From: a virus
Reading direction: 5' to 3' (one strand)
DNA: 64,000 nt
Virus genome (UHGV): UHGV-0212524
The translations under genes were made by a program, and so were the position numbers. The first letter of the stretch is position 1; every line of letters starts with the position of its first letter. The notes under the pieces were generated by a model, which saw nothing but the letters and a program-made list of their open reading frames with translations, did no database searches and was not told the origin of the DNA. Shown one piece after another: positions 3,037 to 23,830 of this stretch.

Positions 3037-3230
3037 AAATTTGGTTGCCGATTCTAGTTTTTATCGTTATTGCAGGGGCACTCGCAAGTGCTGAGTTAGA
3101 TAGCCGTACTTTAGAAACGAAACGTGAATTGTACCAGGACTGTATAAAGGATTATACACCGGGTACAGAGCTTCATGCACAAGCTGTAAAAAGTTGTGCG
3201 TTGATGGCTGAATCGCAGACTCGCTCCTAA
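3033..3230 (+). CDS. small secreted/membrane protein (paralog of 2824..3036)
   Basis: 65 aa; N-terminal signal-like hydrophobic segment; ATGA overlap with upstream gene. Confidence 0.45.
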   Translation: MKIWLPILVFIVIAGALASAELDSRTLETKRELYQDCIKDYTPGTELHAQAVKSCALMAESQTRS

Positions 3231-3604
3231 TGCGTATCTGGACGCTACAACTCGCTAAGTGGCGGTTAGCTAAGCAGAAAGGATTTCACGCGGTGGATAT
3301 CACCGTGAAGTCAGGTCGAAAGGAACTCGCCCCCGACTGGGATTTCCTAATGGCGTATAAATCTTCTGTCAAGGACGCTGCCGCTGAACGTGAGTACACG
3401 ATAAAGTATTTGTACAAACTCGAACGACTGTTAGATACTGATGCCGAAGTTTTAGTGTCGTTACTCAGACACGATGACTTGGTTTTGATGTGTTATTGTC
3501 CCGCAGGTAAGTTTTGTCATCGACACTTACTGGCGAACAAACTTCAAGAAGTGGGAATGATGTTTGGTATCGACGTTGTGTTGTGTGGAGAATTAACCGA
3601 ATAA
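3230..3604 (+). CDS. hypothetical protein with Cys/His cluster
   Basis: 124 aa; CYCPAGKFCHRH near C-terminus suggests metal binding; terminator follows. Confidence 0.5.
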   Translation: MRIWTLQLAKWRLAKQKGFHAVDITVKSGRKELAPDWDFLMAYKSSVKDAAAEREYTIKYLYKLERLLDTDAEVLVSLLRHDDLVLMCYCPAGKFCHRHLLANKLQEVGMMFGIDVVLCGELTE

Positions 3605-3670
3605 AAAATTCTATCGAAATCTTCCGGAAAAATCACTAATCATTCTTGATTTTTAACTACAGAATAGTCT

Positions 3671-3714
3671 CCTACCGCCCGATTCTATGGGCGGTAGGTG
3701 TTTTATTTTTTTTT
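3671..3714 (+). terminator. rho-independent terminator
   Basis: CCTACCGCCC..GGGCGGTAGG hairpin followed by a 14-nt T-rich run. Confidence 0.7.
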
Positions 3715-3730: not shown

Positions 3731-4294
3731 GTGGCCACACCATACGTACCTGATTTGAGTCTGACCTCAGCAGAGCTAGTGGTCGCTTTAATCAATCACG
3801 ATAATGGGTTACAGCTTACGCTAAACGAAATACGTATTAGCGGGACCGTAACAAACTCATCTCCAACAACTTCGCGTCGTAACACCATTACCGAAATCAG
3901 TAAAATCAGAAAACCAGATGGTGCGTCTGTTGTGGTTTATTACGACAGACTCGACGCAGATGAAGTATTAACGTATGAACCCATTCTGATTTCGTTAGAC
4001 GGTACTGAAGACAACGTTCGTGACATTCTTAGTGTTGTAAATGAATTCTGCGGAACGAACTTACAACCCGAGGATTTACGTGCTTCAGATATCACTTTAG
4101 GTAACGATCCCATTTCCGTTAACGTTGCCGACGATTCTCCTGCGTGGATGAACGCGTTTATGGTGACGTTGTTTGATACAACCGAACGGGCATTAGCAAA
4201 CGAAGAAGATGCAATCTTCTGTATTGGTGACAATGCCGTTCTTACATTCGAGGTTACAGATGGCGACAGCACTGAAGAAGACGAGACTCCATGA
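3731..4294 (+). CDS. hypothetical protein, PDLSLTS paralog family (upstream flank of adhesin module)
   Basis: 187 aa; N-terminus ...PDLSLTSAELVVALINHD... and YYDRL / CGTNLQPEDL segments paralogous to 13858..14370. Confidence 0.6.
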   Translation: MATPYVPDLSLTSAELVVALINHDNGLQLTLNEIRISGTVTNSSPTTSRRNTITEISKIRKPDGASVVVYYDRLDADEVLTYEPILISLDGTEDNVRDILSVVNEFCGTNLQPEDLRASDITLGNDPISVNVADDSPAWMNAFMVTLFDTTERALANEEDAIFCIGDNAVLTFEVTDGDSTEEDETP

Positions 4295-4721
4295 GCTCGA
4301 AAGCTACGCAGGCACACCGCAGGGCGGGGTACTGCTGTATAGCAAAGACAATAAAGAATATAAAATTGATGTTGATAAGTTAGCCCCGGTTGCGACAGTC
4401 ACCACGGTTAACGGTTCGAATAATGCCGCCACGTTGGATTTCAATACCAGCACTGACATTATTCTGGTGTTAAACGATCCCACTACTACGGTGACGTTCG
4501 CAGCCCTTACTAACGTTGCGGAAAATACCCGTTTCGAAGTAATGCTAACGTTTAAGCAGGGAACAGGGGCGAATAAAGTAACCTGGCCTGAAAACGTTAA
4601 GTGGCCTCACGGTGCAAAACCGGTTTTATCCTACACGGCAAATGCGGAAGACACTCTGTCGCTTTATACCCTTGACGGGGGTGCCACTTGGAAAGGTTCT
4701 CTTCTTGCAGCGGGTTACTAA
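4260..4721 (+). CDS. short fibre-like protein sharing N-terminal anchor motif with the long tail fiber
   Basis: ATG at 4260 with GAGG RBS; N-terminal MATALKKTRLHELESYAGTPQGGVLLYSKDNKEYKI matches N-terminus of 7806..12272. Confidence 0.55.
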   Translation: MATALKKTRLHELESYAGTPQGGVLLYSKDNKEYKIDVDKLAPVATVTTVNGSNNAATLDFNTSTDIILVLNDPTTTVTFAALTNVAENTRFEVMLTFKQGTGANKVTWPENVKWPHGAKPVLSYTANAEDTLSLYTLDGGATWKGSLLAAGY

Positions 4722-7700
4722 ATGAGAAAACATTTTCAGCGTCACGCGATTAGCTACGCGTTATCGTTAGCTTACGGTCACCAATCCTTCGTTACCCGGA
4801 ATACGGGAACGACTAACGACGCACATATCGATCATTACATTCAAAACGAAGAAGGTGTTCTGTCGAATAACCGTCATTTCATCGCTGATACCATGGCGGA
4901 ATACCAACCGAACGGTGACGCAACGACCGAGGGTCAGTCGTTACACATTATCGGTTATTGCCACATGTATATCGCAACAAAAGACGAAAGATGGTTAGAT
5001 GCTGCGAAACACGCCTGGGATGCGTACAACACGTACTTCTACGCCGGACAGCCTATTCCGACAACACCCCAGCGTCGGATTTGTAACTGGTTAGTAAACG
5101 GGAAAGAACCGGTATTAGCACACTATCCTATTCACCCTACGGAACCTACCAACGGCGGGTATAAATGTGTTCCTGTAAGGTTTACAAATGGCCAATGTAA
5201 GATACCGCACGGTGCACCTTTCTGGGGAGAGTATTTGGATATCTGTACGTTTGCATATCGTGGCCACCCTGCCTGGGCCGCGATTAACGCAGATGTACAG
5301 ATTATCAAGGAAGACAAAGAAGGGTCGATTAATTGGGAAGACGTTTTAACTCACGTTATTACTAATCCTGATAAGCCTTACGAAAGCACAGCTTGGGTCG
5401 ATTGGCCAACACTGCTAAATAATACTACAGGTTACACCCCGCTTTGGGGCGGCTCTGCAACAAAAGCTCCTAAACACGACGTTGACTGGATAATTGCCTG
5501 GACGGGTAACAAAATCCAGGATGGTGAAATTATTGAGACGGGATTAGCAGACGCTGATAAAGGTACCGTACAGTTAAAAGACACACAGTTAAACGGTGTC
5601 TATTTAATTAACTACGCGGTAAAACTTCCTGTCGAACACGGCGGTTACGAATTTAAACGTAATGAGCCGTGGCACAACCGTCCGGTCCACACACCGTTCT
5701 TAGGGTCGAAAAACCAATACGGTAACGCCGCTGATGCTGAACTGTGGTTTATCGACGCCTGTTATTTGCTGTGGCGAATCACAGGTGAAGAGAAATACAA
5801 ACAAGCATTAGACTGTGCTTTCTACACCGCACATGAGTACACGTATATTGATGCGACAGATAAATTCTTCCGTCGTTCTACCGCTGCGGATACACCGTTT
5901 ACTGACGGTATTTCGTACGATTTCGATTACCCAGATACCGTAAGTGCCACCTACGGCCGTGATGAGAATGGAGACATTACCATCCACGTGCCTGAAGCGG
6001 CGCAGCACTTTATGGAGCAAAAAGCGGTTAGGTTCAGGATTAACAAAGACTCTAAACTACGTGTCACGTACGGTGGAGTTTGTAAGAATGGCGATCCTGT
6101 CTACTGTAAAGTGATGGTGAACATTAACCCTGCGAAAGCTGATACCGAGGAGGTAAACTGGTACGGTTTAACCTTACCTCGGTCTACGGTAAATACCGTT
6201 AAACAGTACGATGTTGACTTAGGCCAACTTTCCCGTATTACCACCCCAGAAGGGGGAGACTACCTGATAGCTGAAGCCCGTGCGTGTTCGGACTACGGTG
6301 GTTGTACGTGGGAAGAACGTTTTGAGGATAGCATTTACGATGGTCGCGCGGGTACCGTGGTAGAAGCGGAATTTCCTGATGACAGTGCCGGGTTTATTAT
6401 CGGGTTTTGGTTAACCGCTGAAGAGAAGGTAAAACCCGTTTCTATTGTTTACCGTGCAGACGCAGATTTTAACTTGCGTTTAGTCGACAGTGATAACTGG
6501 CTTTGGTGGTGGATGTTACCCAACACAAACAACGAATGGCGTCAGGTAACGTTGAATCCGGATGAAGCCACACTTTCCGGTTATCAGCCAGACCACACAG
6601 ACGCTGACCCTAAACCTTCAGCACCGAATTTCGATAAGGTGGATCAGGTCACGATTCTTCCTGACTCCACAGTTGACCATGCACACTTTGCTTACTATTG
6701 TGTTAACGATGTCCCACCGGTCTTTAATAAAGACGATGGTTATATTTTAACCTTCCGTATTGCCTTACGCGGTGGTGCAGAGTTTGATGCAAAGGTGGGT
6801 GATTGTACGATTGTAGATTACCGATTGGATTCGTTAGCGTACTGTCCGGGTACGATACCGTTCACGAACAGCTACTTAGAAGGTTCAGAACAGTTAGGTG
6901 CTTGGCACGGGATGCCTTATCCAGGTTATCAGTATCCGTTTATGTACAGTATCCACAAAGACGACCGGTATAAGTTGTGGTTAGATAACCAGATTCAATT
7001 CCTGCACGATTCGCAGTTGGCTTACCAACAGCAAATTGGGGAATTAGGACCTGGTTGCGCAGCTTATATCTGGAACCGTTGGGACAACTACAGCTACGGA
7101 GAAGCGGATACCTGGACGACGTTCCATTGGGGTGATGACCATCCTTGGGCAGGGTATCAGCCTCGCGCGTTTCATGCTGCGTGTCGGTGTTGGTACGAAC
7201 TGAAACTGCGAGGTAAAGACGTTCCCGAGGCGTTAACAACCTATATTGACAACTGGGTGAATTGGCTAGGTGGGTTTGTGGATCGGTTTAACGGCCACAC
7301 TCCTAACGAGTTCCCTACAGCACCGGATAAAGCTGTTTGGGTGGAAAACGACTTCACCGCACATATGTGTGGGTTGTGGTTAGCAGGGTGTTGCTGGGCA
7401 TTACTCGCCGGTGCAACGAATCCGAACTACGAAAAAGTGGTTAATGCGGCAATTAAGGAGTTAGGTGAAGGGTTTACGATTACCTCAATTCCGAATAAGC
7501 CGATTAATGGAGCGTGGTCTCCAGCCGCTCGAGAGTCTTCTGATAACGGAATGGCTTATGGGTTCTACACTGGAGAAGTGCTACGTGCGTTAGGTCTCTA
7601 CGTTACTTATAAAACCTACGGACCCAACGCTAATATTTATCGTGACTTAGCGATTACTGACCACAGTCAAGCGGTCTTAGACGTTACGTTAACGATAGAA

Positions 7701-7727
7701 GATGTTCCATTAAAACCGGAGCAATAA
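4722..7727 (+). CDS. large structural protein (1001 aa), function unknown
   Basis: ATG directly abuts upstream stop; Trp/Tyr-rich; sits between fibre-anchor gene and long tail fiber; terminator follows. Confidence 0.6.
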   Translation: MRKHFQRHAISYALSLAYGHQSFVTRNTGTTNDAHIDHYIQNEEGVLSNNRHFIADTMAEYQPNGDATTEGQSLHIIGYCHMYIATKDERWLDAAKHAWDAYNTYFYAGQPIPTTPQRRICNWLVNGKEPVLAHYPIHPTEPTNGGYKCVPVRFTNGQCKIPHGAPFWGEYLDICTFAYRGHPAWAAINADVQIIKEDKEGSINWEDVLTHVITNPDKPYESTAWVDWPTLLNNTTGYTPLWGGSATKAPKHDVDWIIAWTGNKIQDGEIIETGLADADKGTVQLKDTQLNGVYLINYAVKLPVEHGGYEFKRNEPWHNRPVHTPFLGSKNQYGNAADAELWFIDACYLLWRITGEEKYKQALDCAFYTAHEYTYIDATDKFFRRSTAADTPFTDGISYDFDYPDTVSATYGRDENGDITIHVPEAAQHFMEQKAVRFRINKDSKLRVTYGGVCKNGDPVYCKVMVNINPAKADTEEVNWYGLTLPRSTVNTVKQYDVDLGQLSRITTPEGGDYLIAEARACSDYGGCTWEERFEDSIYDGRAGTVVEAEFPDDSAGFIIGFWLTAEEKVKPVSIVYRADADFNLRLVDSDNWLWWWMLPNTNNEWRQVTLNPDEATLSGYQPDHTDADPKPSAPNFDKVDQVTILPDSTVDHAHFAYYCVNDVPPVFNKDDGYILTFRIALRGGAEFDAKVGDCTIVDYRLDSLAYCPGTIPFTNSYLEGSEQLGAWHGMPYPGYQYPFMYSIHKDDRYKLWLDNQIQFLHDSQLAYQQQIGELGPGCAAYIWNRWDNYSYGEADTWTTFHWGDDHPWAGYQPRAFHAACRCWYELKLRGKDVPEALTTYIDNWVNWLGGFVDRFNGHTPNEFPTAPDKAVWVENDFTAHMCGLWLAGCCWALLAGATNPNYEKVVNAAIKELGEGFTITSIPNKPINGAWSPAARESSDNGMAYGFYTGEVLRALGLYVTYKTYGPNANIYRDLAITDHSQAVLDVTLTIEDVPLKPEQ

Positions 7728-7748
7728 TAACCCGCTTATAAAAATGTT

Positions 7749-7780
7749 GGGGGAGGTGCTTTACCTCCCCCAGATCTTTT
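7749..7780 (+). terminator. hairpin terminator
   Basis: GGGGGAGGT..ACCTCCCCC hairpin after the 1001-aa gene; weak T tract. Confidence 0.55.
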
Positions 7781-7805
7781 AGCTCCCGATAGAGAATTAA
7801 ATATC

Positions 7806-10800
7806 ATGGCTAAAGCGGTAAAGAAAATTCGTTTACACGATTTACGTCCATACACCGGGGATATAGGTGAAGGTGTTTTACTTTTTTCCAAGGATGAGAA
7901 AGATTATAAGTTACCTGTCCGTGAGATCGTTGCAGATATTGACACCGTACGTAATGCGGTGTCTGATGCACAAACAGCAGCAACACAATCACAAGAAGCT
8001 GCAACTCAGGCTACACAAGCAAAGAATTTAGCAGAAACAGCAAAACAACAAACTGACACCGTTGCGGCTACAGTTGCTCAACAAGCGCAAACTGTAACCG
8101 AAAAAGCAACTGAAGTCGGTACAAAACACACTGAAGTGTTAGCCGCGAAAACGGCGGTAGATACCCAGGTTGTGTCCGTTAATGAGAAAGCGCAAGCGGT
8201 AGCGGCAAGCGAGGCCAACGTCACACAAGCGGTGACTACCGTTACGAAGAAAGCAGAAACTGTTGCCACACAAGCCGGTCAAGTCGAACAGTCGCTTACG
8301 GCAGTTAACGAAGCTGTCGCGTCGGTAGAGTCGTCAAAAGCCGCTGTAGAAGCTACAGCAACGCAAGTTACCACAGACAAAGAAACCGCAGAGAATGCGG
8401 CAACGCGTTCTGAGGCAGCGGCTAAGCGTGCAGAAGAAATCGCTGCAAAAGGTAACGTTGATGCAACAACGACCAGTAAAGGTATCGTTAGACTTAATAA
8501 TACCTTAAGCAGTGACTCTGTTACTGAAGCGGCTACGCCGTCAACGGTTAAGCAGTTAAATGAAGATTTGCAGTTAAAAGCAAACCGTCACAACCCAACT
8601 TTTACCGGTGTGGTAAAAGCACCAACACCTGCTTCGGATTCTAACGACACGAGCGTCTCAACGACCGCATGGGTACGGCAAGCGATTGCTGAATTAGTGG
8701 ACTCTTCACCCGAGACGTTAGATACGTTATCAGAAATTGCAGCTGCGTTAGGAAACGATCCTAACTTTGCGACAACGATGACGAACCAACTCGCGGGTAA
8801 ACAGCCGTTAAGTCCGTTACTGACAGCGATTGCCGCAGTCACCACCGCTGCAAACAAACTCCCTTACTTTACCGGTAGTAATCAGGTAGGGTTAGCGGAT
8901 TTCACCTCGACTGCGCGTGATTTGTTAGCGAAAGGGTCGACGGCAGATATCATTAACTTCCTGGGTTTGAAAACCACTGTTGATAAAGCTGCGGGTGCTA
9001 TGCAACGCAGTTCTAACGGTGCCGATATTCCAGATAAAGTCACCTTCGCGAAGAACATCGGGTTGTCAGCAGAGACGTATTTGAAGTTTAATGGGGAAAT
9101 GGCAGTAGATGCGGATATCAACACCTTCGGCCCAGTCGAAGCGTTTATGGGTGTCTGGTCTAAAGCCACGTCTACGAATGCAACAATTGCAAAGAACTTC
9201 CCGGAAGACGATGCAGTTGGTTACTTAGAGGTATTCAAAGCAGGTAACTACAGCGGAAGCCAACGTTTTACCATACGTAACGGTAACGTCTATACTCGTC
9301 GTTTAACAGGAACCTGGAACGGTACTAACGGCCCTTGGTCGCCCTGGAGAATGACAACTACCGCGAACCGTCCGCTCTCCACCACTATTGACCTTAACAC
9401 TTTAGGTGGTGTTGAACACATGGGTCAGTGGCGTAACTCCAGTTCTTCTCTTGCGACGTTCGATCGTCATTATCCCGAAGAAGGTGGTAATGCTCAAGGT
9501 GTATTAGAAGTAATGGAAGGTGGTCTCTACGGACGTATGCAACGTTACACCACTCGTCGTGGTACGATGTATGTCCGTGGGTTGACTGCGACTTGGGATG
9601 CGTCTAATCCACAGTGGGAAGATTGGATTCAAGTTGGGTATCAGGTAGACGGTGCCTACTATAAGGGTAGCTTTAATGACTTAACTAAACCTGGTCGTTT
9701 TAGTGTTACCGGTGAGGCTACTGACGGTCCGTTAACAGACTCTGCTGGCGCAACCTTGTTAGGTGTTTGCGAAGTTACCTTACGCTTAGACGGTTCAGGC
9801 GTTGAACAAAATTATACCACATACGGTACAGGCGCAACTACGAAAGGTCGCAAGTTCCAACGAATTCGTACAGGAAACGCCTGGAGCGAATGGCGAGAGA
9901 TTTTCACATCCTATTCACTCCCGTTGGCTTTAGGGATCGGTGGGGTTGCTGCCAAGGTCGATCCGTTAGACTGGCAAACCTTCGATTTCGTTCCTGGCCA
10001 GATGATAAGTACACCGTTGAATACCATGAAAAACATTCCTGCGGGAATGGATTGGGGTGTTATTGACGGTAACTTGGTCAGTATTCTCGTAGGGGCGTCA
10101 GAGGACACCGGTACTGGTCGGAGTATGTTGGTCTGGCGCGGTACAGTGTCTACTGCTAACTATCGCTTCTTTGCAGTACGTATCGCTGGCGAGAAGGGTA
10201 GCCGTACGATTACGCCACGACAGATGCCTGTGTTGAACGCAGCCCACACTTGGGCAGAGAAACAGACCTTTGCAAAAGGGTTAGCAGGTGAGTTAACCGG
10301 CAATGCTTCAACCGCCACTAAGCTCCAGACTGCGCGTAGAATTGGCGGGGTCGCTTTCGACGGCAGCGGCGACGTTAACCTCCCAGGTGTTAACCAACAA
10401 GGTAATCAAAACACCACAGGTAACGCCGCGACAGCCACTAAACTTCAAACCGCCAGAAATATTAACGGTGTGAAATTCGATGGCTCTGGAGACATCAATA
10501 TCAACACCTTGGTAGGTCGTGGACGGGTTACCGCTCTGACCGGGTCGAACAAGGGTACACCTGGTATCCAGATGTACGAAGTTTACAATAACGGTTATCC
10601 AACCGCCTATGGTAACTTGCTGCACTTAGGTGGTGCTAATGCGCTAGGCGAAGGTGAGTTGTTAATTGGTTGGTCGGGCACGAGTGGTGCACACGCACCC
10701 GTTTATATTCGTAGTCGACGCGATACGGCTGATGCGCCGTGGTCAGATTGGGCACAAGTTTATACTGCCCGTGACAGTATTCCTGGTGTAAATACCACCG

Positions 10801-12272
10801 GTAATCAGGATACTACTGGCAATGCCGCTACCGCGACGAAACTGAAAACCGCTCGCAGAATCGGCGGCGTTACCTTTGACGGTACTGGGGATATCAATTT
10901 ACCGGGGGTTAACCAGCAAGGCAACCAGAATACGACAGGTAATGCAGCGACCGCTACTAAGTTACAAACAGCACGTAAGATCGGCGGTGTTAACTTTGAC
11001 GGTTCGCAAGACATTAGTCTGCCCGGTGTAAACCAGACGGGTAATCAGTCGACTACCGGAAACGCAGCCACGGCAACAAAGTTGCAGACAGCGCGTACCA
11101 TTAACGGTATCGCATTTGACGGTACTAGAAATATATCGTTAGGGCCTGCCGATATAGGTTGTCCGGCTTCGCCCACTGGTTGGTTGGAGACTGGTAAAGA
11201 CGGCGGCGCAATAACTACAGCACAGCTAGTGACGTTATTGCAAAATAACGGCGCGTTTACCACAAAATCATGGGTTGCTCGCTGTGCATGGGCTTATGCT
11301 GCTAGTGCGTCCATACCGAACAGCGAGACGGGTTGTGGTGTTATTCCGTTAGCTGGGGCTGTTATAGAAGTGATTAGTAACAGCGCAAACAACTACACGA
11401 TCCGTATAACGACCCCCACAACGACGAGCGTCGGCGGCGCACTCACTAATGCGGAGTTTATCTACGTAAATAACGGTGATGCTTACTCACCAGGTTGGCG
11501 TCGCGCTTACAATACGAAAAACAAGCCAACTGCTGCGGATGTTGGGGCGTTGCCATTATCTGGCGGTCAATTGAATGGTGTGCTGACGCTGCAAAATGTG
11601 AGTCAGCCTCTCAAGACGCCGGGTGGCGGCATTCTGGCAAATGATGGAAATTTATACATCAATAAGTCAGGATTTGCAGGCTGGATTGATGCGCTGTTTT
11701 TGAAGAACAGCGGCGGTACTGTCACTGGCGATTTAACGGTTAACGGTAAACTGGTTACGAAGTATGCTGATTTCCGAATCGCTTACGGTAGCTGCGGTTT
11801 CATTTTACGTAATGATGGTGCCAATACCTATTTCTTAGTAACCGACTCCGGACAAGCCGCAACGGGTTCCTGGAACGGACTACGTCCGTTGTATTTTAAT
11901 AACTCTAACGGTCAAGTAACCTTTGGTCATAACATTTCTAGCAACGGTAACGGTTCGTTTAACGACGTACAGATTCGTTCTGACCGTCGCAACAAACGTA
12001 ATCTGGTGAAGCTGGATAAGGCTTTGGATCGGTTAGAAGCGCTTACCGGCTATCTGTACGAGGTTCAACATCCAGACGACGGTTGGAACACTTCGGTAGG
12101 TCTAATTGCTCAAGACGCATTAGAAGCGTTACCTGAACTTGTGTCTGAGGATGATGATGCCATTTCAGGCGAAAAACGTTTACGTCTAAACTACAATGGC
12201 GTTATTGCGCTGTTAGTAGAGGGTATGAAAGCGTTGCGTCAAGAGGTTAACGAAATTAAAGGAAGATCCTAA
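7806..12272 (+). CDS. long tail fiber protein with C-terminal intramolecular chaperone (peptidase S74-like) domain
   Basis: 1488 aa; A/T/Q-rich shaft; five tandem ~40-aa fibre repeats (TGNAATATKLQTAR.IGGV.FDGSGD); C-terminal SDRRNK (Ser-Lys dyad spacing) + LDKALDRLEAL. Confidence 0.85.
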   Translation: MAKAVKKIRLHDLRPYTGDIGEGVLLFSKDEKDYKLPVREIVADIDTVRNAVSDAQTAATQSQEAATQATQAKNLAETAKQQTDTVAATVAQQAQTVTEKATEVGTKHTEVLAAKTAVDTQVVSVNEKAQAVAASEANVTQAVTTVTKKAETVATQAGQVEQSLTAVNEAVASVESSKAAVEATATQVTTDKETAENAATRSEAAAKRAEEIAAKGNVDATTTSKGIVRLNNTLSSDSVTEAATPSTVKQLNEDLQLKANRHNPTFTGVVKAPTPASDSNDTSVSTTAWVRQAIAELVDSSPETLDTLSEIAAALGNDPNFATTMTNQLAGKQPLSPLLTAIAAVTTAANKLPYFTGSNQVGLADFTSTARDLLAKGSTADIINFLGLKTTVDKAAGAMQRSSNGADIPDKVTFAKNIGLSAETYLKFNGEMAVDADINTFGPVEAFMGVWSKATSTNATIAKNFPEDDAVGYLEVFKAGNYSGSQRFTIRNGNVYTRRLTGTWNGTNGPWSPWRMTTTANRPLSTTIDLNTLGGVEHMGQWRNSSSSLATFDRHYPEEGGNAQGVLEVMEGGLYGRMQRYTTRRGTMYVRGLTATWDASNPQWEDWIQVGYQVDGAYYKGSFNDLTKPGRFSVTGEATDGPLTDSAGATLLGVCEVTLRLDGSGVEQNYTTYGTGATTKGRKFQRIRTGNAWSEWREIFTSYSLPLALGIGGVAAKVDPLDWQTFDFVPGQMISTPLNTMKNIPAGMDWGVIDGNLVSILVGASEDTGTGRSMLVWRGTVSTANYRFFAVRIAGEKGSRTITPRQMPVLNAAHTWAEKQTFAKGLAGELTGNASTATKLQTARRIGGVAFDGSGDVNLPGVNQQGNQNTTGNAATATKLQTARNINGVKFDGSGDININTLVGRGRVTALTGSNKGTPGIQMYEVYNNGYPTAYGNLLHLGGANALGEGELLIGWSGTSGAHAPVYIRSRRDTADAPWSDWAQVYTARDSIPGVNTTGNQDTTGNAATATKLKTARRIGGVTFDGTGDINLPGVNQQGNQNTTGNAATATKLQTARKIGGVNFDGSQDISLPGVNQTGNQSTTGNAATATKLQTARTINGIAFDGTRNISLGPADIGCPASPTGWLETGKDGGAITTAQLVTLLQNNGAFTTKSWVARCAWAYAASASIPNSETGCGVIPLAGAVIEVISNSANNYTIRITTPTTTSVGGALTNAEFIYVNNGDAYSPGWRRAYNTKNKPTAADVGALPLSGGQLNGVLTLQNVSQPLKTPGGGILANDGNLYINKSGFAGWIDALFLKNSGGTVTGDLTVNGKLVTKYADFRIAYGSCGFILRNDGANTYFLVTDSGQAATGSWNGLRPLYFNNSNGQVTFGHNISSNGNGSFNDVQIRSDRRNKRNLVKLDKALDRLEALTGYLYEVQHPDDGWNTSVGLIAQDALEALPELVSEDDDAISGEKRLRLNYNGVIALLVEGMKALRQEVNEIKGRS
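10296..11160 (+). repeat. in-frame tandem coding repeats (phage tail-fibre repeat units) inside the long tail fiber gene
   Basis: Five degenerate ~120-nt units each encoding TGNAATATKL(Q/K)TAR.I(G/N)G(V/I).FDG(S/T)(G/Q/R)(D/N). Confidence 0.8.
11982..12269 (+). other. predicted autoproteolytic intramolecular chaperone domain (C-terminal 96 aa of tail fiber)
   Basis: Begins at D following Ser in IRS|DRRNK; Ser...Lys spacing of 5 as in S74 chaperone domains; location read from sequence. Confidence 0.6.
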
Positions 12273-13054
12273 TGGCAGTTGTCGGCGTAGGTGGTTGGAT
12301 TGGTTCTTCAGCAAAAGCTGAAACTGGTAACGATTGGATGTCTGGCGCGATGCGCACACTTGGTGTGCCGGTTCCAGGCTGGATGTCGCAATTGGCGGGA
12401 AAATCAAAAGAGGTTCAGTATTCGATCGGGGCTAATCACAATTACAATAAAGATACGCTTATTAACTATTTACGTTCTATAGGCTCTAATGCTGTCGTTG
12501 TGACCATTACAGGGGATTTAGTGTCTTATAGTAGCGGGGTTCCTTGTTTAGAATTCCCTAGCAATCTTCCAAATTCGTATATTACACTCATCATCAATCC
12601 TGGGGTTACAGTATACGGCAGAGGAGGCAACGGCGGTTCTAACTCACCAGGCGGTGCAGGTGGAACCGCAATACAGAACGGAATAGGAAACAGACTGCGT
12701 ATAACCAACCGTGGCGCTATTGCCGGAGGCGGTGGCGGCGGTGGCGGCGGTAACAGGGGTAGACTAATATTTGGTGGTGGCGGTGGTCGCCCATTCGGTG
12801 CTGGTGGGTCTTCCTCACATATGAGTTCCGGTGCAGCTGCTGGTACTATTTCCGCTCCTGGTAGAGGATCTGTTGGTGAGGGGTCTCTTAGTGCATATAC
12901 AGGCGGTTCGGGTGGTAATGTCGGTGCTGCTGGAGGAAGATGTAATACTCATGGTAACGGTACAGAATATAACGGCGGAGCCGCTGGTGCAGCCGTTAGA
13001 GGTAATGCGCCAAGATGGGACGCAGTAGGTGCAATATATGGTTCACGTGTTTAA
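12272..13054 (+). CDS. 38: tail fiber tip adhesin, gp38-like (T2/S16 type) with glycine-rich motifs
   Basis: 260 aa; N-terminus MAVVGVGGWIGSSAKAETGNDWMS and ITGDLVSYS as recalled for T2-type gp38; C-terminal half has multiple poly-Gly motifs. Confidence 0.7.
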   Translation: MAVVGVGGWIGSSAKAETGNDWMSGAMRTLGVPVPGWMSQLAGKSKEVQYSIGANHNYNKDTLINYLRSIGSNAVVVTITGDLVSYSSGVPCLEFPSNLPNSYITLIINPGVTVYGRGGNGGSNSPGGAGGTAIQNGIGNRLRITNRGAIAGGGGGGGGGNRGRLIFGGGGGRPFGAGGSSSHMSSGAAAGTISAPGRGSVGEGSLSAYTGGSGGNVGAAGGRCNTHGNGTEYNGGAAGAAVRGNAPRWDAVGAIYGSRV

Positions 13055-13114
13055 TTTGAAAAAGTATGGGGATACTCACTCCCCTCCTCACACCTTTCAA
13101 AAGGATAGGGTATA

Positions 13115-13618
13115 ATGGGGGTAGCATCTGGATGGGTCGGTTCTTCGGCCAAGAACGAAACGGGCGAACAATGGATGAGTGCTGCTGGTAGTAAATTAGG
13201 ATTGGGTAGACCTTTTATGATGAGTCAAATGGTGGGCCGATCTCTTGGCTGTAAAATCGCAACTGCTGCATATAGCGATTCAATGGCTAAATTTTGGGGT
13301 GCGGTGGGACCAAACTGGCCGTTAGCGCAGAAAAATAAAGGGACTATTCAGAATCCTGGTAGCTGCGGCGTAGGCACACTTATTGGTATCCAACTACTAT
13401 TGATCACATTGGCTGCTGATGCAAAACCAAGTTTAGCGGTCTATTTACAAGGTGGGAGAGCTTCTAACATCACCGTAAATCTAGGCGGCAACACTTGTAC
13501 GGTAGCCTATCAGCAGGTTATTAATGGTCAACATTATTACTGGACCTCTAACATTAGCACTGCTTTCCAAAACGTGATGAAATCAACCGGCACATTAAGA
13601 GATTTGAAGATTAGTTAA
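13115..13618 (+). CDS. gp38 N-domain paralog with unrelated, non-glycine-rich C-terminal domain
   Basis: 167 aa; N-terminus MGVASGWVGSSAKNETGEQWMSAAG parallels 12272..13054; C-terminal half lacks Gly-rich motifs. Confidence 0.6.
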   Translation: MGVASGWVGSSAKNETGEQWMSAAGSKLGLGRPFMMSQMVGRSLGCKIATAAYSDSMAKFWGAVGPNWPLAQKNKGTIQNPGSCGVGTLIGIQLLLITLAADAKPSLAVYLQGGRASNITVNLGGNTCTVAYQQVINGQHYYWTSNISTAFQNVMKSTGTLRDLKIS

Positions 13619-13639
13619 TAATTTTCAAGCGAATGTGCT

Positions 13640-13900
13640 TGAAAACGTAATCGGGGGGGGGGGTGAAATGTTTTTAGCCACCATTTTATGTCTCCCCAAG
13701 CATAGGAGGTAACCATACGTGGAACATTTCACGCCTGTTTGGGCGTTAACTTAAGTAAAAAACGATCACTCGAATCTGCTATAAAAAGCAATCGGGGGGT
13801 GGTGAAATGTTTATAGACAACTTTTTATGTCTCTCCAATCATAGGAGGTAACCATACGTGGAACAATTCACGCCTGATTTGTCGTTAACTTCACTTAACA
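13640..13900 (+). repeat. ~110-bp tandem duplication (two diverged copies) ahead of 13858..14370, with homopolymeric G tracts
   Basis: 13651..13757 and 13791..13897 align (ATCGGGGGG..GTGAAATGTTT..CATAGGAGGTAACCATACGTGGAAC..); first copy has G11 run and a start remnant that terminates after 11 codons. Confidence 0.8.
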
Positions 13901-14370
13901 TGGTTATTTCACTGGTTAACCATGACCTCCAGCTCGACCTGCAAGAGAACGAGGTTGAAGTCAGCGACGTAAAGACCAGTAACGAAATGGATCGTGACAC
14001 CACTGCTGTTGTAAAGATAAAACGTCCTGGTAACAGAACGTTACAAATCTATTACAACCGTTTAACCGCAGAGCGGTGGTTAAACCAGCAACCTATTCTG
14101 GTAAAGGTTTCCGGTAATGGTTTTACCGCACACGATCTAATCGACGGAATTAACGCGGCTTGCGGTTGTAATTTACAACCCGACGATCTTACCGACGAAT
14201 CATTTACCGTAGGGAAAGACGCTGTAACGTTACAGGTTTCACCCAACTCGTTAGGTTATAAAGGCCAATTCTCCGTTCTGGTTTTCGGTAACGACGAAGA
14301 AGCCGCTGTAGTAAAAGACAACGATTTAATCGTTACCGCAGATAATCGCGTCTTAACCTTTGGTGGTTAA
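13858..14370 (+). CDS. hypothetical protein, PDLSLTS paralog family (downstream flank of adhesin module)
   Basis: 170 aa; GTG start with AGGAGG RBS; N-terminus and YYNRL / CGCNLQPDDL paralogous to 3731..4294. Confidence 0.6.
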   Translation: MEQFTPDLSLTSLNMVISLVNHDLQLDLQENEVEVSDVKTSNEMDRDTTAVVKIKRPGNRTLQIYYNRLTAERWLNQQPILVKVSGNGFTAHDLIDGINAACGCNLQPDDLTDESFTVGKDAVTLQVSPNSLGYKGQFSVLVFGNDEEAAVVKDNDLIVTADNRVLTFGG

Positions 14371-14529
14371 TAGTGGCTGAACTGGTAGGAAAGGTACGCA
14401 TTCGCGAGCTACCGACACTTTCAGAAGACATCACTGGTGTGGTGGTGTTAGCGTCTATTGCCTGTTAAGATCGTTATTACGCATCTTACAGGGACAACGC
14501 TTTCTCAGAACGGAATGAAATAAATATTA

Positions 14530-14573
14530 GGTAGTAGGGGCTAAGCCCCTACTACCTTTCTTTTTTATTTTTT
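14530..14573 (+). terminator. rho-independent terminator
   Basis: GTAGTAGGGG-CTAA-GCCCCTACTAC hairpin + TTTCTTTTTTATTTTTT. Confidence 0.75.
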
Positions 14574-14574
14574 C

Positions 14575-14619
14575 TCAGATATATATTACCTAGGGGAGAG
14601 CGAAATTTACATTCGCTCT
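14575..14619 (+). promoter_or_regulatory. conserved promoter-like motif with stem-loop (copy 1 of 4)
   Basis: TCAGATATATATTACCTAGG followed by inverted repeat AGAGCGAA..TTCGCTCT; directly after a terminator. Confidence 0.5.
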
Positions 14620-14744
14620 ATTAGTTATAGCCGAAAGGAGGATTAGTTCTATCACCCGTATTATCTGTTCTGGTGAATTGGGTGAAGATAAAAAATCGTG
14701 TTTGATAAATTAGTTGAAGACTACGTTAAGAAAGAGGGACAATT

Positions 14745-15188
14745 ATGAAACCAAATACTACTAACGGCATTATGTTACTTTGTGATTCTGAAACGTTAGC
14801 AAATCGTATTCGTGGTTTGATGCAAGTACGTTGGCAGCAAAAGGTTTGCGTGGACTATGCTGCACCGTTTGTTCACGTTACCTGGCTACCAGAAGCTAAC
14901 GATTTTAAAGAGAGTATAACCACGAGAAGAATTAAAGATTGGTTAATGGCAATCATTAACAAACGGATTACCGTTATCAATTTCCAGTTGTTCGGTAGTA
15001 AAGAAGAACACGATACCTTAAAACGCTGTTTAAGGGGATTGGATCTTGCCTTTTCTGTTCGTGGAAACTGTTACACAGCGTTCTTCATCGGTTCTCTTGA
15101 GTTATTTCAGGGAACATTAAACATTCAACTAAAAGAAGATTACGGGATCGTAAATAAGATTGATTTCGAATTCCCAGCAATGATTTAA
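14745..15188 (+). CDS. hypothetical protein
   Basis: 147-aa ORF; AGAGGG RBS; first gene after terminator and promoter-like motif. Confidence 0.55.
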   Translation: MKPNTTNGIMLLCDSETLANRIRGLMQVRWQQKVCVDYAAPFVHVTWLPEANDFKESITTRRIKDWLMAIINKRITVINFQLFGSKEEHDTLKRCLRGLDLAFSVRGNCYTAFFIGSLELFQGTLNIQLKEDYGIVNKIDFEFPAMI

Positions 15189-15199
15189 GGAGGAGTAGC

Positions 15200-16042
15200 A
15201 TGTTTCAGTTCGAACTCACCGAAGAAGAAAAGGTTATCAACAAGTTTAAAATTTCCCCTATCCCTACTGAGGATCAAATTAAAGAAATCACTGAGCTACA
15301 AAACACGTACACGTTTTACTATAAAGTTAAATCAGAAGCGTTTAACATTTTCTGGGTAGAAGGCGAGGTCGATTTCCCTAACAAGCTCATTAGTGCGGTT
15401 ATGGATATTTTAGTACGGGCTGTTGAGACGCCTAAAGATCCAGAAATTCCGGATCAAATGACTTGTAGGCTAAAAGACAAGCCAACTGCGAAAGACGTCG
15501 CTTACTTCACAGACGAGATTCCACTTACCCCCAAACAGGCAGGTAAAATCGGTTCGATATTATACCTTTTTTACAACGACAAATTCACTTATCTGGTTGA
15601 AAACAACGTGCTTAAAGTGAACTATGAAGGTGCTACTTATCGCGCTTTTTTAAATAACCTATTGAATGACATAGAGAAAGAAAATATTCTGCTATTTACA
15701 GTTGAGGATATTAGCGAGGCCGATGCTGCCGAGTTTATTCGCGCAGTGAAAGATGAACACGAACACCATCTATTTATAATTTATCAAAGCAAATATCTTG
15801 AAGGTAACCTGAATCTCTTGATCCCAAACAAACCATGGGTTCTTAAAGTTCTGGAACCCCTTGCGCAGAAAATTAAGAGAGATGGTGAATATTTTAAACA
15901 CGTTCTCAAGAAATACGAAAAAGAAATCAGCGAACGACTTTCACGCCACTTTTTTGGACAGCTAGAAGCTCACGTTGGCGAATACGCCCAGCTGTTTGAT
16001 AGATTTTGTAACGAGATGAGAGAAGTTCGGAATCTTAAATAA
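15200..16042 (+). CDS. hypothetical protein (EAD..EF.R motif family)
   Basis: 280 aa; AGGAGG RBS; VEDISEADAAEFIRAVKDEHEH resembles repeats in 20001..21167. Confidence 0.55.
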   Translation: MFQFELTEEEKVINKFKISPIPTEDQIKEITELQNTYTFYYKVKSEAFNIFWVEGEVDFPNKLISAVMDILVRAVETPKDPEIPDQMTCRLKDKPTAKDVAYFTDEIPLTPKQAGKIGSILYLFYNDKFTYLVENNVLKVNYEGATYRAFLNNLLNDIEKENILLFTVEDISEADAAEFIRAVKDEHEHHLFIIYQSKYLEGNLNLLIPNKPWVLKVLEPLAQKIKRDGEYFKHVLKKYEKEISERLSRHFFGQLEAHVGEYAQLFDRFCNEMREVRNLK

Positions 16043-16084
16043 CGAAGGCTTAATTACCCCACTATTTACCTAAAGGAGCATTAA

Positions 16085-16600
16085 ATGTCTGTAACAATCA
16101 ACATGAATCTTTATACCAAACGTGAACGTCAAATCTTGGCTAATCAGCCAGGTGTTACTACGATTGACGGTAAACCTATCGACCCATTAAAAGTCGTTGT
16201 CGCACACAACTGTTTCGAGAAAGACTGGGACATCATGTATTTCCGTTGCCGTTCTGTCGCCAACGCACTTACCCAGCTCTCGAATTATCATCCTGGCCCA
16301 GTATTAAAAGACTGGGTTTGGTTAGTCCCTAAAACACCTTCAGCGATTGAGTATCCGTCGGGTATGGTCTATATTCGTCCTGTCGCTTATCCAGAACGTT
16401 TAAAAGAATATCTGGAGGTTATCTGGGACCGACCTCGTAAAGAGCTGGTGACGATTATCCGTTTACTTCAAATGTGCGATATCCCCAATGTTTCGAATCT
16501 GAAACTTACGTCTCGCGATATTAACCAGGCTTACTGGGAACTAGAGTGGACAGAACCGAAATTCGAAAACACTAACCGTATTTTCTTGCACCGGGGGTAA
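16085..16600 (+). CDS. hypothetical protein
   Basis: 171-aa ORF with AAGGAG RBS. Confidence 0.55.
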   Translation: MSVTINMNLYTKRERQILANQPGVTTIDGKPIDPLKVVVAHNCFEKDWDIMYFRCRSVANALTQLSNYHPGPVLKDWVWLVPKTPSAIEYPSGMVYIRPVAYPERLKEYLEVIWDRPRKELVTIIRLLQMCDIPNVSNLKLTSRDINQAYWELEWTEPKFENTNRIFLHRG

Positions 16601-21834: not shown

Positions 21835-22683
21835 ATGTCTCTTACGTCAAAACAGAAACTGCTAAAACTCATCAACACTGAAAACAATATTAGTCCACCG
21901 TTGACTTTCAGTGATGTTGATATCGGAGAACCTACCGGTACTGGGGTTGATACCCAGGTGGTTCTGACCTCTAAACTCAAAGGCGATGAGTCTACTACTT
22001 TAACAGTGACTTACCACCGTCGTAATTTACCTGACTACTTAACCGGTGAGTTGGTATTCGGTAACGACAGTGTGGTAACCGCATCAGATTTGCTTAATGC
22101 GATCAACGCAAAATACAGCCTAAATATTTTACCCTCGGATATCGTTGACGCAAAAGTTGAAGGCGAAACCCATCAGCTTACCGCTAACGAGAAATCTTAC
22201 GAGTGGTGCGGTGTAGTAACGCTTACGCTGCATGATCCTATTGACCTGACTGAACTTTTACCAGTTACTCAATTAGAGAATCTGGTAGAGTATCCGTCCA
22301 CTAAGAAAGGTAACGCTGCGGTTTATTCACACCCGATTGATTTCACCGCAGAAAAAGATTACCTTGACCCGATTACTATCAACGACACCGTAGACTTGGT
22401 AGAGTTAGCCTCTAAACTGGATGGCGTCGTTGATGAGAAATGGGTAAGTGTACCTAAGAACGCGGCTAACAACCTGTACGGTGCTAAAGTTATTTACGAT
22501 GGTCCAACCGCAGGTTACGAAGGCGCAAATACGAAGTTCACTCGTGTGTTGGTGCTAACGCTCAGCCCGCTGTGTTCTAACCTGACCGGTAACCTGTTAA
22601 TTCACTTTAACGGTACCGATCGTCCGAAGTCGAAGATTGAATTAGCACAGACTAATCCGGTCTTACCGGGATTCTTAGATTAA
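21835..22683 (+). CDS. hypothetical protein, Y.(R/N)R family
   Basis: 282 aa; paralogous segments with 22697..23176 (DLL.(A/V)IN..YSL); weak RBS. Confidence 0.5.
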   Translation: MSLTSKQKLLKLINTENNISPPLTFSDVDIGEPTGTGVDTQVVLTSKLKGDESTTLTVTYHRRNLPDYLTGELVFGNDSVVTASDLLNAINAKYSLNILPSDIVDAKVEGETHQLTANEKSYEWCGVVTLTLHDPIDLTELLPVTQLENLVEYPSTKKGNAAVYSHPIDFTAEKDYLDPITINDTVDLVELASKLDGVVDEKWVSVPKNAANNLYGAKVIYDGPTAGYEGANTKFTRVLVLTLSPLCSNLTGNLLIHFNGTDRPKSKIELAQTNPVLPGFLD

Positions 22684-22696
22684 GAGGATTACAGTA

Positions 22697-23176
22697 ATGA
22701 CCAATCAAGAAACTATCTTCGACCTTATTAAAAAGGCTAACCCGGACGCTGAGTTCGACACCACCAAAGTCACGCTGGGCGATCCGGTTGTGACCACCGG
22801 TACTTACAATACCGAAATCACAGTTGCGTCAATTAAGAATCTCGGTTACACTAACGAACAAACGTTCCAGTATAACCGCATTGACGCAGGTTTGTATTTC
22901 CTGAACGTATTACCGAAACTGTTGGTAGAATCTGCAACGACTACCGCTGACTTACTGCCCGTCATTAACGAGCAGTACAGCCTAACCCTTACAGAAGACG
23001 ACGTGTGGGTAGAACAGGTTGGTGAGTTACCGTTGGACGGTAGCGCAATCGAACACGGTATTTTCTTCCGTCCTGAGTGTCTGACTTGGGTCGGCGGTTT
23101 TACGGTGCGTGTTGCACGTAAACCGGCTGTTGAAACACCGCCAGCTAAGCCATCACGCGCTAAGAAGAAAAAATAA
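22697..23176 (+). CDS. hypothetical protein, Y.(R/N)R family, Lys-rich C-terminus
   Basis: 159 aa; GAGG RBS; ends PAKPSRAKKKK; terminator follows. Confidence 0.55.
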   Translation: MTNQETIFDLIKKANPDAEFDTTKVTLGDPVVTTGTYNTEITVASIKNLGYTNEQTFQYNRIDAGLYFLNVLPKLLVESATTTADLLPVINEQYSLTLTEDDVWVEQVGELPLDGSAIEHGIFFRPECLTWVGGFTVRVARKPAVETPPAKPSRAKKKK

Positions 23177-23180
23177 TTAC

Positions 23181-23216
23181 AGGGTGGGGGTAATCCCCAC
23201 CCTCTTTTCTTTTTTG
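23181..23216 (+). terminator. rho-independent terminator
   Basis: AGGGTGGGG-GTAAT-CCCCACCCT + TCTTTTCTTTTTTG. Confidence 0.75.
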
Positions 23217-23239
23217 TGTAAAAGAGGAGTTAAACGAAA

Positions 23240-23830
23240 ATGGCTGAACGTTGGTCTAAAGAAGGTATCATTGAATCCAAAACCGATTTGGAAGGCGGGT
23301 ACGTCAACGACCCTGACGACTTAGGTGCAGAAACGAACCACGGTATCACGGTAACGACTGCACGTGAGTACGGTTACACAGGGAAGATGAAAGACCTTAC
23401 CCGTGCACAAGCATTCGATATCTACGATCGCGGTTGGTGGAAGAAGCTCAAACTTGATGAGATTTTCGCTATCTCACCGTTACTCGCGGACCGGATGTTT
23501 GATTTTGGTATTAACGCAGGTCGTGCCAACTGCGTGAAATCGCTACAGCGTATTCTCAACGTGTTGAACAACGAAGGTAAACTCTACGCGGACATCGATA
23601 CCGACGGCGGTATGGGGCCTAAAACGCTGGGCGCGTTGAACGCGTACCTGAAATATCGTAAAGATGAAGGGCTAAGCATTTTAATCTTTGCGTTAATCTC
23701 GCACCAAGTAACTTACTACACGGAAATCTCCGAAAAACGTAAGAGAAACGAGAAATACACCTACGGTTGGTACGGCCGCGTCTTCAGAGAAATGGCAGAT
23801 TATGCGGTAAAAGCGGGGTTAGTAAAATGA
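23240..23830 (+). CDS. endolysin candidate, GH108-type lysozyme domain with peptidoglycan-binding region
   Basis: 196 aa; EGGYVNDPDDLGAETNHGIT fits the GH108 N-terminal signature as recalled; AGAGGAG RBS. Confidence 0.65.
   Translation: MAERWSKEGIIESKTDLEGGYVNDPDDLGAETNHGITVTTAREYGYTGKMKDLTRAQAFDIYDRGWWKKLKLDEIFAISPLLADRMFDFGINAGRANCVKSLQRILNVLNNEGKLYADIDTDGGMGPKTLGALNAYLKYRKDEGLSILIFALISHQVTYYTEISEKRKRNEKYTYGWYGRVFREMADYAVKAGLVK

Follow-up and report, generated by a model that had tools for sequence, protein, structure and literature searches.

The 64,000-nucleotide stretch of virus genome UHGV-0212524 analysed here (the window; one strand, position 1 being its first letter) carries, between positions 3,731 and 14,370, a set of tail-fibre and adhesin genes bracketed by two short genes of the DUF7941 protein family, designated A and B. 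With a probability of roughly 70%, this region is a host-recognition locus for multiple receptor-binding proteins (RBPs) in a jumbo phage resembling Salmonella phage SPN3US, wherein short DUF7941 paralogs accompany RBP genes bearing a common N-terminal motif and diversification proceeds piecemeal. An earlier note on this DNA had proposed A and B as flanking homology that might allow the intervening genes to be exchanged as a single cassette; comparison with 18 related contigs covering the region largely refutes this whole-block model. Feature coordinates are collected in Table 1.

Pairing of short DUF7941 genes with receptor-binding protein genes

The proteins encoded by A and B align over 169 residues with 36% identity and 57% positives (E-value 4e-36) and are true paralogs. 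Both match the Pfam family DUF7941 (PF25613) with scores of 72 bits (A) and 61.7 bits (B) against a gathering cut-off of 27, covering positions 3-153 and 3-166, respectively, of the 276 in the profile. A shows 45% identity to SPN3US gp122 and occupies the same position in the gene order, and B is without an ortholog in SPN3US-type phages, whose only counterpart is gp122.

Every RBP gene in the locus (the small fibre/anchor gene, the long tail fibre gene and, in relatives, the gene following B) begins with the same N-terminal motif of about 42 amino acids (aa), with the approximate consensus MA..VKK.R.HEL....G...G.V.L.SK..KEYK (for example, MAKAVKKIRLHDLRPYTGDIGEGVLLFSKDEKDYKLPVREIV). It is found on the anchor and long-fibre proteins, on the 206-aa, SASA and 133-aa proteins encoded after B in relatives, as well as on SPN3US gp123, to which the N-terminus of the long fibre shows 58.5% identity (E-value 1.4e-8, tblastn). 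A profile of the motif, compared with 1.84 billion representative sequences, matched only 18 cluster representatives, 15 of which, proteins of 55-1494 aa, have the motif at residues 1-45. Within a genome, the DNA encoding the motif is only 45-55% identical; its maintenance as protein and not as DNA points to functional constraint instead of a role as recombination sequence, and the motif was rejected as the real recombination substrate on the same ground.

Short DUF7941 genes lie beside such RBP genes in different phages. In SPN3US, gp122 is followed by gp123 and gp124. In the lineage of the window, A lies beside the anchor or the long-fibre gene, and the gene or genes next to B encode a protein of 206 aa, a SASA esterase of 706 aa or a pair of proteins of 133 and 348 aa. 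Klebsiella phage Eowyn harbours five short DUF7941 genes (gp226, 228, 229, 234 and 238) interleaved with seven tail-fibre/tailspike genes, and the N-termini of its RBPs follow a related pattern, MA....KK(L/I).DLP.Y......G.LLY.E....Y. The number of short DUF7941 genes and of motif-bearing RBPs is thus one and one set in SPN3US, two and two to three sets in the lineage of the window, and five and seven in Eowyn. The context in Erwinia phage RAY, which comprises only tandem full-length DUF7941 genes, is uninformative on pairing.

An array of RBPs with a conserved N-terminus and a variable receptor-binding C-terminus, along with gain and loss of RBPs between close relatives, is likewise seen in multi-RBP phages such as the Klebsiella jumbo phages RaK2 and Eowyn, and conserved N-terminal anchor modules on RBPs are a general principle (bioRxiv 10.64898/2026.05.12.724579). 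The present locus differs from such phages in that the anchor is a rare motif of about 42 aa and is accompanied by short DUF7941 genes. Domains resembling the branching domains of T4 gp10 were not found in the locus by Pfam.

Predicted fold and possible role of the short DUF7941 proteins

A profile built from A and B matches phiKZ gp127 in PDB entry 9xqd (E-value 1e-6). Similarly, an AlphaFold2 (AF2) model of A, obtained with a 68-sequence alignment (predicted local distance difference test score, pLDDT, 80.5), has 9xqd_0 (phiKZ gp127) as its sole PDB match with an E-value of 0.001 or lower (E-value 2.4e-7, probability 1.00, template-modelling score TM(target) 0.69). A is predicted to have the fold that phiKZ gp127 shows in its N-terminal globular domain, and B is assigned the same fold through its 36% identity to A. 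Among the 50 listed of the 80 structural matches of A in BFVD (E-value of 0.001 or lower), all those with an organism name come from phiKZ-like jumbo phages; DUF7941 is specific to phiKZ-like (chimallivirus-type) jumbo phages. A and B end after the N-terminal domain and a low-confidence tail of about 30 aa, unlike the phiKZ gp127 family, which possesses a disordered linker followed by a globular domain at the C-terminus; in this short form they resemble Goslar gp23, which is also devoid of the C-terminal domain (bioRxiv 10.64898/2026.04.21.720040). The family is present in multiple paralogous copies in the window, as it is in SPN3US, Goslar and phiKZ.

In the outer peripheral baseplate of phiKZ, one gp127 is present per star lobe, capping the gp139 band (PMC13250141). 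According to a preprint on phage Goslar, DUF7941 proteins are confined to chimalliviruses, form head-to-tail filaments (the filament former being gp22/23, members of the family) and in some cases carry fused carbohydrate-binding or hydrolase domains; a part in host recognition at the peripheral baseplate is proposed there for the family (bioRxiv 10.64898/2026.04.21.720040). [quoted passage not shown] A second adaptor paralog would have been gained together with further fibres, and a foreign T-even-type fibre could have been grafted on through the shared motif. This proposal, with both the docking role of A and B and the joint gain of adaptors and fibres, is tentative and has somewhat less than even odds. 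More doubtful is the specific arrangement in which short DUF7941 proteins would be dedicated baseplate “sockets” and the motif of about 42 aa the “plug”, extra sockets (A plus B here; five in Eowyn) allowing extra RBPs, including foreign ones.

Several points weigh against the reading of A and B as partners of the RBPs in the virion. In SPN3US, about 20 DUF7941 members constitute “paralog family B”, of which gp122 was named as a speculative extra member (PMC5694885). By mass spectrometry, gp122 was not detected in SPN3US virions (PMC5694885; PMC5105663 Table S4) and gp123 was barely detected (5 spectra; PMC5105663 Table S4), while other members of the family were assigned to the head, being present in tailless particles (PMC5694885; PMC5105663 Table S4). 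The non-detection of gp122 would fit a 20-kDa protein present at about six copies per virion, as is phiKZ gp127, and equally a non-structural role, and is not decisive. The published roles of the family are themselves in conflict, with head proteins reported for SPN3US, and a place in the peripheral baseplate or in filaments for phiKZ and Goslar. Moreover, the correspondence of one adaptor to one RBP is not strict: the long fibre of the window follows the 1001-aa gene, and Eowyn has five short genes for seven RBPs. Lastly, the distance tree in which A, B, SPN3US gp122 and the short copies of Eowyn group apart from head-type members (SPN3US gp138-141 and window genes C and D), with B branching outside A and gp122, was built on about 170 positions without support values and is suggestive only.

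Of the alternatives, the one that survives best considers A and B as non-structural assembly factors (chaperones) for the neighbouring fibres, acting outside the virion; it is nonetheless improbable. Such a role is compatible with the non-detection of gp122 in purified virions in which gp124 was detected, as well as with the tight gene order between A or B and the RBP genes, where A overlaps the open reading frame (ORF) of the anchor and B shares an ATGA overlap with the RBP gene that follows it in relatives (RBP2). However, phiKZ gp127, which A and B match in fold and sequence, is a structural protein of the baseplate, DUF7941 proteins are virion-associated in Goslar and SPN3US, and the long fibre has a Peptidase_S74 chaperone domain of its own in addition to gp38-type partners. 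Known fibre chaperones are, furthermore, usually encoded downstream of the fibre gene and not upstream, which also counts against such a role.

Less probable still is that A and B are simply like other DUF7941 proteins (head components as in SPN3US, or subunits of the free “fibre-cloud” filaments proposed for Goslar), their position next to fibre genes being without meaning. A and B do share their Pfam family with the head paralogs gp138-154 of SPN3US and with Goslar gp22/23, and Goslar gp23 is likewise short. Against this stand the separate clade formed by the short RBP-adjacent copies, the retention of their position beside RBP genes in Seoulvirus, the lineage of the window and Eowynvirus, and the rise in their number (1, 2, 5) with that of RBP genes; gp122 also escaped detection in virions, whereas the filament and head members are abundant.

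Piecemeal variation among relatives

The phage in the window is an SPN3US-like (phiKZ-related) jumbo phage, SPN3US itself being a Seoulvirus. The gene order around the locus is syntenic with SPN3US gp120-gp141, and megablast of the window gives 71-75% nucleotide (nt) identity to SPN3US-type genomes in a few stretches only; the closest match in the phage collection searched does not exceed about 75% nt identity. A and B, used as queries, led to many close relatives, about 100 of them as full contigs; these are contigs of about 222-227 kb from IMG/VR, metagenomes and isolate assemblies of Salmonella, Shigella and E. coli (single contigs), and the lineage is apparently populous and undescribed. 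One IMG/VR contig has ends that overlap by 99 nt, pointing to an assembly that is complete and circular.

A and B occur in every relative whose locus extends to them, with 84-98% (A) and 74-99% (B) aa identity to the window. The interval between them ranges from 6.7 to 10.2 kb and varies in composition, so that conserved paralogs with invariant content between them were not what the relatives presented. The anchor and 1001-aa genes are present in five of the 18 contigs (c078609, c095954, L015, L016 and L026) and absent from 13, which keep the first 60 nt or so of the anchor gene (MET/ETPLKKTRLHELD...) along with the last 90 nt or so of the 1001-aa gene. Since both gene ends are kept, the loss is best read as an internal deletion of an ancestral SPN3US-like arrangement. 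In the long fibre, residues from about 1100 to 1300, which are hypervariable, and from about 1300 to 1488 each occur as several types that assort independently. Furthermore, gp38a is absent from six contigs, gp38b is present in all with a C-terminal part of two types, and fibre-tip and gp38 types assort independently of each other. An identical B protein (P0001) is encountered with and without the anchor and 1001-aa genes, and with two gp38 genes or one.

Alignment breakpoints recur at boundaries of genes and domains, all along the interval and past B as well, at about 3606-3672, 4265-4300, 7671-7686, 11130, 11550, 11712, 12290, 13270, 13620-13660, 13735-13794, 14290-14457, 14665, 15191 and 16048. 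Host-range variation in this lineage is piecemeal, occurring by deletions and by segment swaps at domain and gene boundaries, with A and B as conserved islands.

The descriptive part of the earlier note stands: A and B are clear paralogs sharing the motifs it had quoted, they flank the anchor, 1001-aa, long-fibre and both gp38-like genes, and a tandem duplication with a truncated gene start is present at the 3' boundary (see below). Its view of an exchangeable host-range module holds insofar as the region is a host-range hot spot with A and B conserved and the interval variable, and fails as regards both the mechanism and the unit of exchange. At the nt level, a global alignment of A and B gives identity in 52% of alignment columns (59% of ungapped positions), their longest common exact string is 11 nt (TTACAACCCGA) and the best blastn high-scoring segment pair (7-nt words) is 23 nt at 87%; the paralogy exists at the protein level only, and the proposed recombination substrate is not borne out, the similarity falling far short of the requirements of homologous recombination. 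Moreover, A and B lie as direct repeats, between which recombination would lead to loss of the block and not to its exchange, and the 18 relatives contained neither an A/B hybrid nor an A-B deletion. Exchange between genomes would use the orthologous A-A and B-B homology, to which the paralogy is irrelevant. As for the unit, the interval is not replaced as a whole; its sub-segments have independent histories, as is evident from the internal breakpoints, from the independent assortment of fibre-tip and gp38 types and from contig c113438, whose B is 99% but whose A is 84% identical to that of the window. A variable slot also occurs downstream of B, outside the bracket. With at least four DUF7941 genes in the window (A, B, C and D) and about 20 in SPN3US, the “bracket” amounts to a selection from a multigene family. 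The conservation of A and B around an interval of differing length and composition, the clustering of breakpoints just outside them and the identical B protein with different intervening content speak for homology arms, but in view of the evidence above, swapping of the whole fibre/adhesin block by recombination at A and B is very improbable.

Significance of the locus

As regards fibre attachment to the peripheral baseplate of phiKZ-like jumbo phages, a very large structure, fibres are not resolved in the Goslar map, and a role for DUF7941 was proposed only in 2026. The present locus and its natural variants, roughly 20 in number, provide a concrete and testable pairing, that of a short DUF7941 gene beside RBP genes sharing a motif, together with a natural series of genomes that combine the presence and absence of three RBP systems in various ways. 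Such information could guide the host-range engineering of jumbo phages of Salmonella, Shigella and E. coli. From the genomic viewpoint, the locus illustrates that a variable region may have paralogs on both sides without these serving as substrates for recombination.

Block structure and comparison with SPN3US

Table 1. Features of the host-recognition locus and further DUF7941 genes in the window
Feature	Position	Strand	Description
Terminator-like hairpin	3671..3698	+	Strong; 11 pairs, 8 GC, T tail; upstream of A, at the left edge of the first block and within a breakpoint hot spot
A	3731..4294	+	Short DUF7941 protein, 187 aa; N-terminal domain and tail; ortholog of SPN3US gp122
gp123-like small fibre/anchor protein	4260..4721	+	153 aa; ORF open from 4209, start at 4260 likely by homology; phrog_9017
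1001-aa tail protein	4722..7727	+	Ortholog of SPN3US gp124, 71% identity; phrog_2871
Terminator-like hairpin	7747..7773	+	Strong; separates the gp122-124-like block from the lineage-specific block
Long tail fibre	7806..12272	+	1488 aa
gp38a	12272..13054	+	T2/T6-type gp38 adhesin, 260 aa; GP38 (E-value 3e-69), Gp38_N (E-value 1.5e-15)
gp38b	13115..13618	+	Second gp38-like gene, 167 aa; Gp38_N only, with a different C-terminal part
Duplication copy 1	13613..13759	+	Canonical gp38b-B intergenic sequence and decayed B start
Duplication copy 2	13754..13898	+	Decayed upstream part, intact ribosome-binding site, real start of B
B	13858..14370	+	Second short DUF7941 protein, 170 aa
RBP2 remnant	14373..14468	+	31 codons, among them the first part of the N-terminal motif (VAELVGKVRIRELPTLSEDITGVVVLAS); gene also retained at its 3' end, to about 14523
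Terminator-like hairpin	14529..14557	+	Strong; 13 pairs, 8 GC; closes the long fibre-gp38-B-RBP2 block
C, D	21835..23176	+	Two further DUF7941 paralogs of SPN3US gp138-154 type: C (21835..22683), 282 aa, full-length; D (22697..23176), 159 aa

The terminator-like hairpins divide the region into two blocks, one comprising A, the anchor and the 1001-aa gene, and the other the long fibre, gp38a, gp38b, B and the RBP2 remnant. The hairpin between them is conserved in relatives that are without the anchor and 1001-aa genes. A scan for sigma-70 promoters yielded sites no more frequent than in shuffled sequence, the outcome to be expected when a phage has RNA polymerases of its own.

By homology, the first block corresponds to SPN3US gp122-124 and represents the ancestral set. 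The long fibre, the two gp38 genes, B, its partner RBP gene and two small ORFs (about 7730-16080) have no counterpart in SPN3US, where gp124 is followed by gp125-126 and then by gp127, equivalent to window 16085..16600. Since the second block is absent from SPN3US, B lies inside a lineage-specific block and not at its edge.

The spacer upstream of A (window 3606-3672) is a recurrent site of insertions/deletions and breakpoints. Several relatives carry an extra gene of 144-145 aa (for example, L011:3658-4092) between A and the DUF488-like gene located at window 3230..3604.

Genes between A and B

The anchor protein is 47% identical to SPN3US gp123. The SPN3US counterpart of the 1001-aa protein, gp124, is a virion protein and clearly one of the tail: 64-79 spectra were recorded for it, against none from tailless particles (PMC5105663 Table S4). 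Neither the gp123-like anchor nor the 1001-aa protein had a meaningful match in PDB sequence searches.

The long fibre is composed of the N-terminal motif, a long shaft, a Gp34_trimer domain, a gp37-like tip and the Peptidase_S74 intramolecular chaperone domain. Its tip shows 46-57% aa identity to fibres of P1-like and T4-like enterobacterial phages, and gp38a, whose start overlaps the fibre stop codon, shows 78-90% nt identity (window 12319-13067) to gp38 genes of the T-even phages RB49, JSE, Phi1, PaulHMueller, FL18 and kvi. On the strength of these two identities, the adhesin end of the module is drawn from the common enterobacterial fibre pool; the gp38a match points to a fairly recent exchange of adhesins between T-even phages and this jumbo phage lineage.

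The locus shares with the T-even gp37/gp38 locus the placement of a gp38 gene encoding Gp38_N and GP38 directly after the fibre gene, as well as the concentration of variation among relatives in the fibre-tip and gp38 segments. The distal tail-fibre locus of T-even phages has reportedly undergone mosaic exchange between conserved motifs (Tetart et al., 1998). Unlike the T-even fibre, the long fibre begins with an SPN3US gp123-type motif instead of a gp36-binding end, and no genes for the half-fibre partners gp34, gp35 or gp36 are found in the locus. The phiKZ-like jumbo phage context and the two tandem gp38-like genes also set it apart from the T-even arrangement.

The slot downstream of B

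In the relatives, B is followed by another RBP gene, usually with overlapping stop and start codons. This gene encodes the 206-aa protein in eight contigs and a protein of 706-708 aa with SASA esterase and DUF6645 domains in nine, and one contig carries the 133- and 348-aa pair. The slot after B varies as much as the interval between A and B, so that the RBP slot with the greatest variability is situated outside the bracket. In the window, the RBP2 remnant has lost roughly 0.5 kb of internal sequence when compared with the 206-aa gene of c078609. A similar deletion in c095954 has other boundaries; owing to this difference, the gene was probably lost twice. Both the RBP2 deletion and the duplication at the 5' end of B look like local scars.

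Further downstream, a 280-aa ORF (15200-16042) is present in about half of the relatives, with 70-100% identity where it occurs, and the window lacks a 283-aa gene that follows RBP2 in most relatives.

Tandem duplication upstream of B

The two copies of the duplication are direct repeats with 87% identity over 105 nt and about 80% over 151 nt. Copy 1 retains a ribosome-binding site and a GTG followed by 11 codons and a stop (13719..13754), that is, a truncated start of B. Two copies of this ribosome-binding site/start motif exist only in the window, every relative having at most one. In the single-copy relatives, the sequence looks like copy 1 over the upstream hairpin and like copy 2 over the coding part, which favours duplication in place over import; the alternative of copy 1 as a recombination scar imported from another lineage fits less well. 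In the simplest view, 141 bp were duplicated locally and the two copies then decayed in a complementary manner; the duplication has no evident function. It coincides with the position at which breakpoints are most frequent (13735-13794).

The conserved hairpin-like sequence upstream of B contains a run of 11 G (13653-13663), which is interrupted in copy 2 (13794-13802). Among the relatives, its length ranges from about 4 to 12 G, a range in which real variation and assembly error are indistinguishable.

Other DUF7941 observations

In contig c29126 (IMGVR_UViG_3300029126_000001; L005:6217-8151), B constitutes the C-terminal part of a 644-aa ORF, the first 475 aa of which match the C-terminal receptor-binding part of the tail-fibre families phrog_13714 and phrog_7032. 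The receptor-binding domain here precedes DUF7941, opposite to the order in the Goslar fusions. The 475-aa part was also considered as a relative of the 1001-aa tail protein, which was rejected as comparison revealed no relation. Apart from the locus itself, an endolysin-like gene with GH108 and PG_binding_3 domains is located directly downstream of C and D (window 21835-23830).

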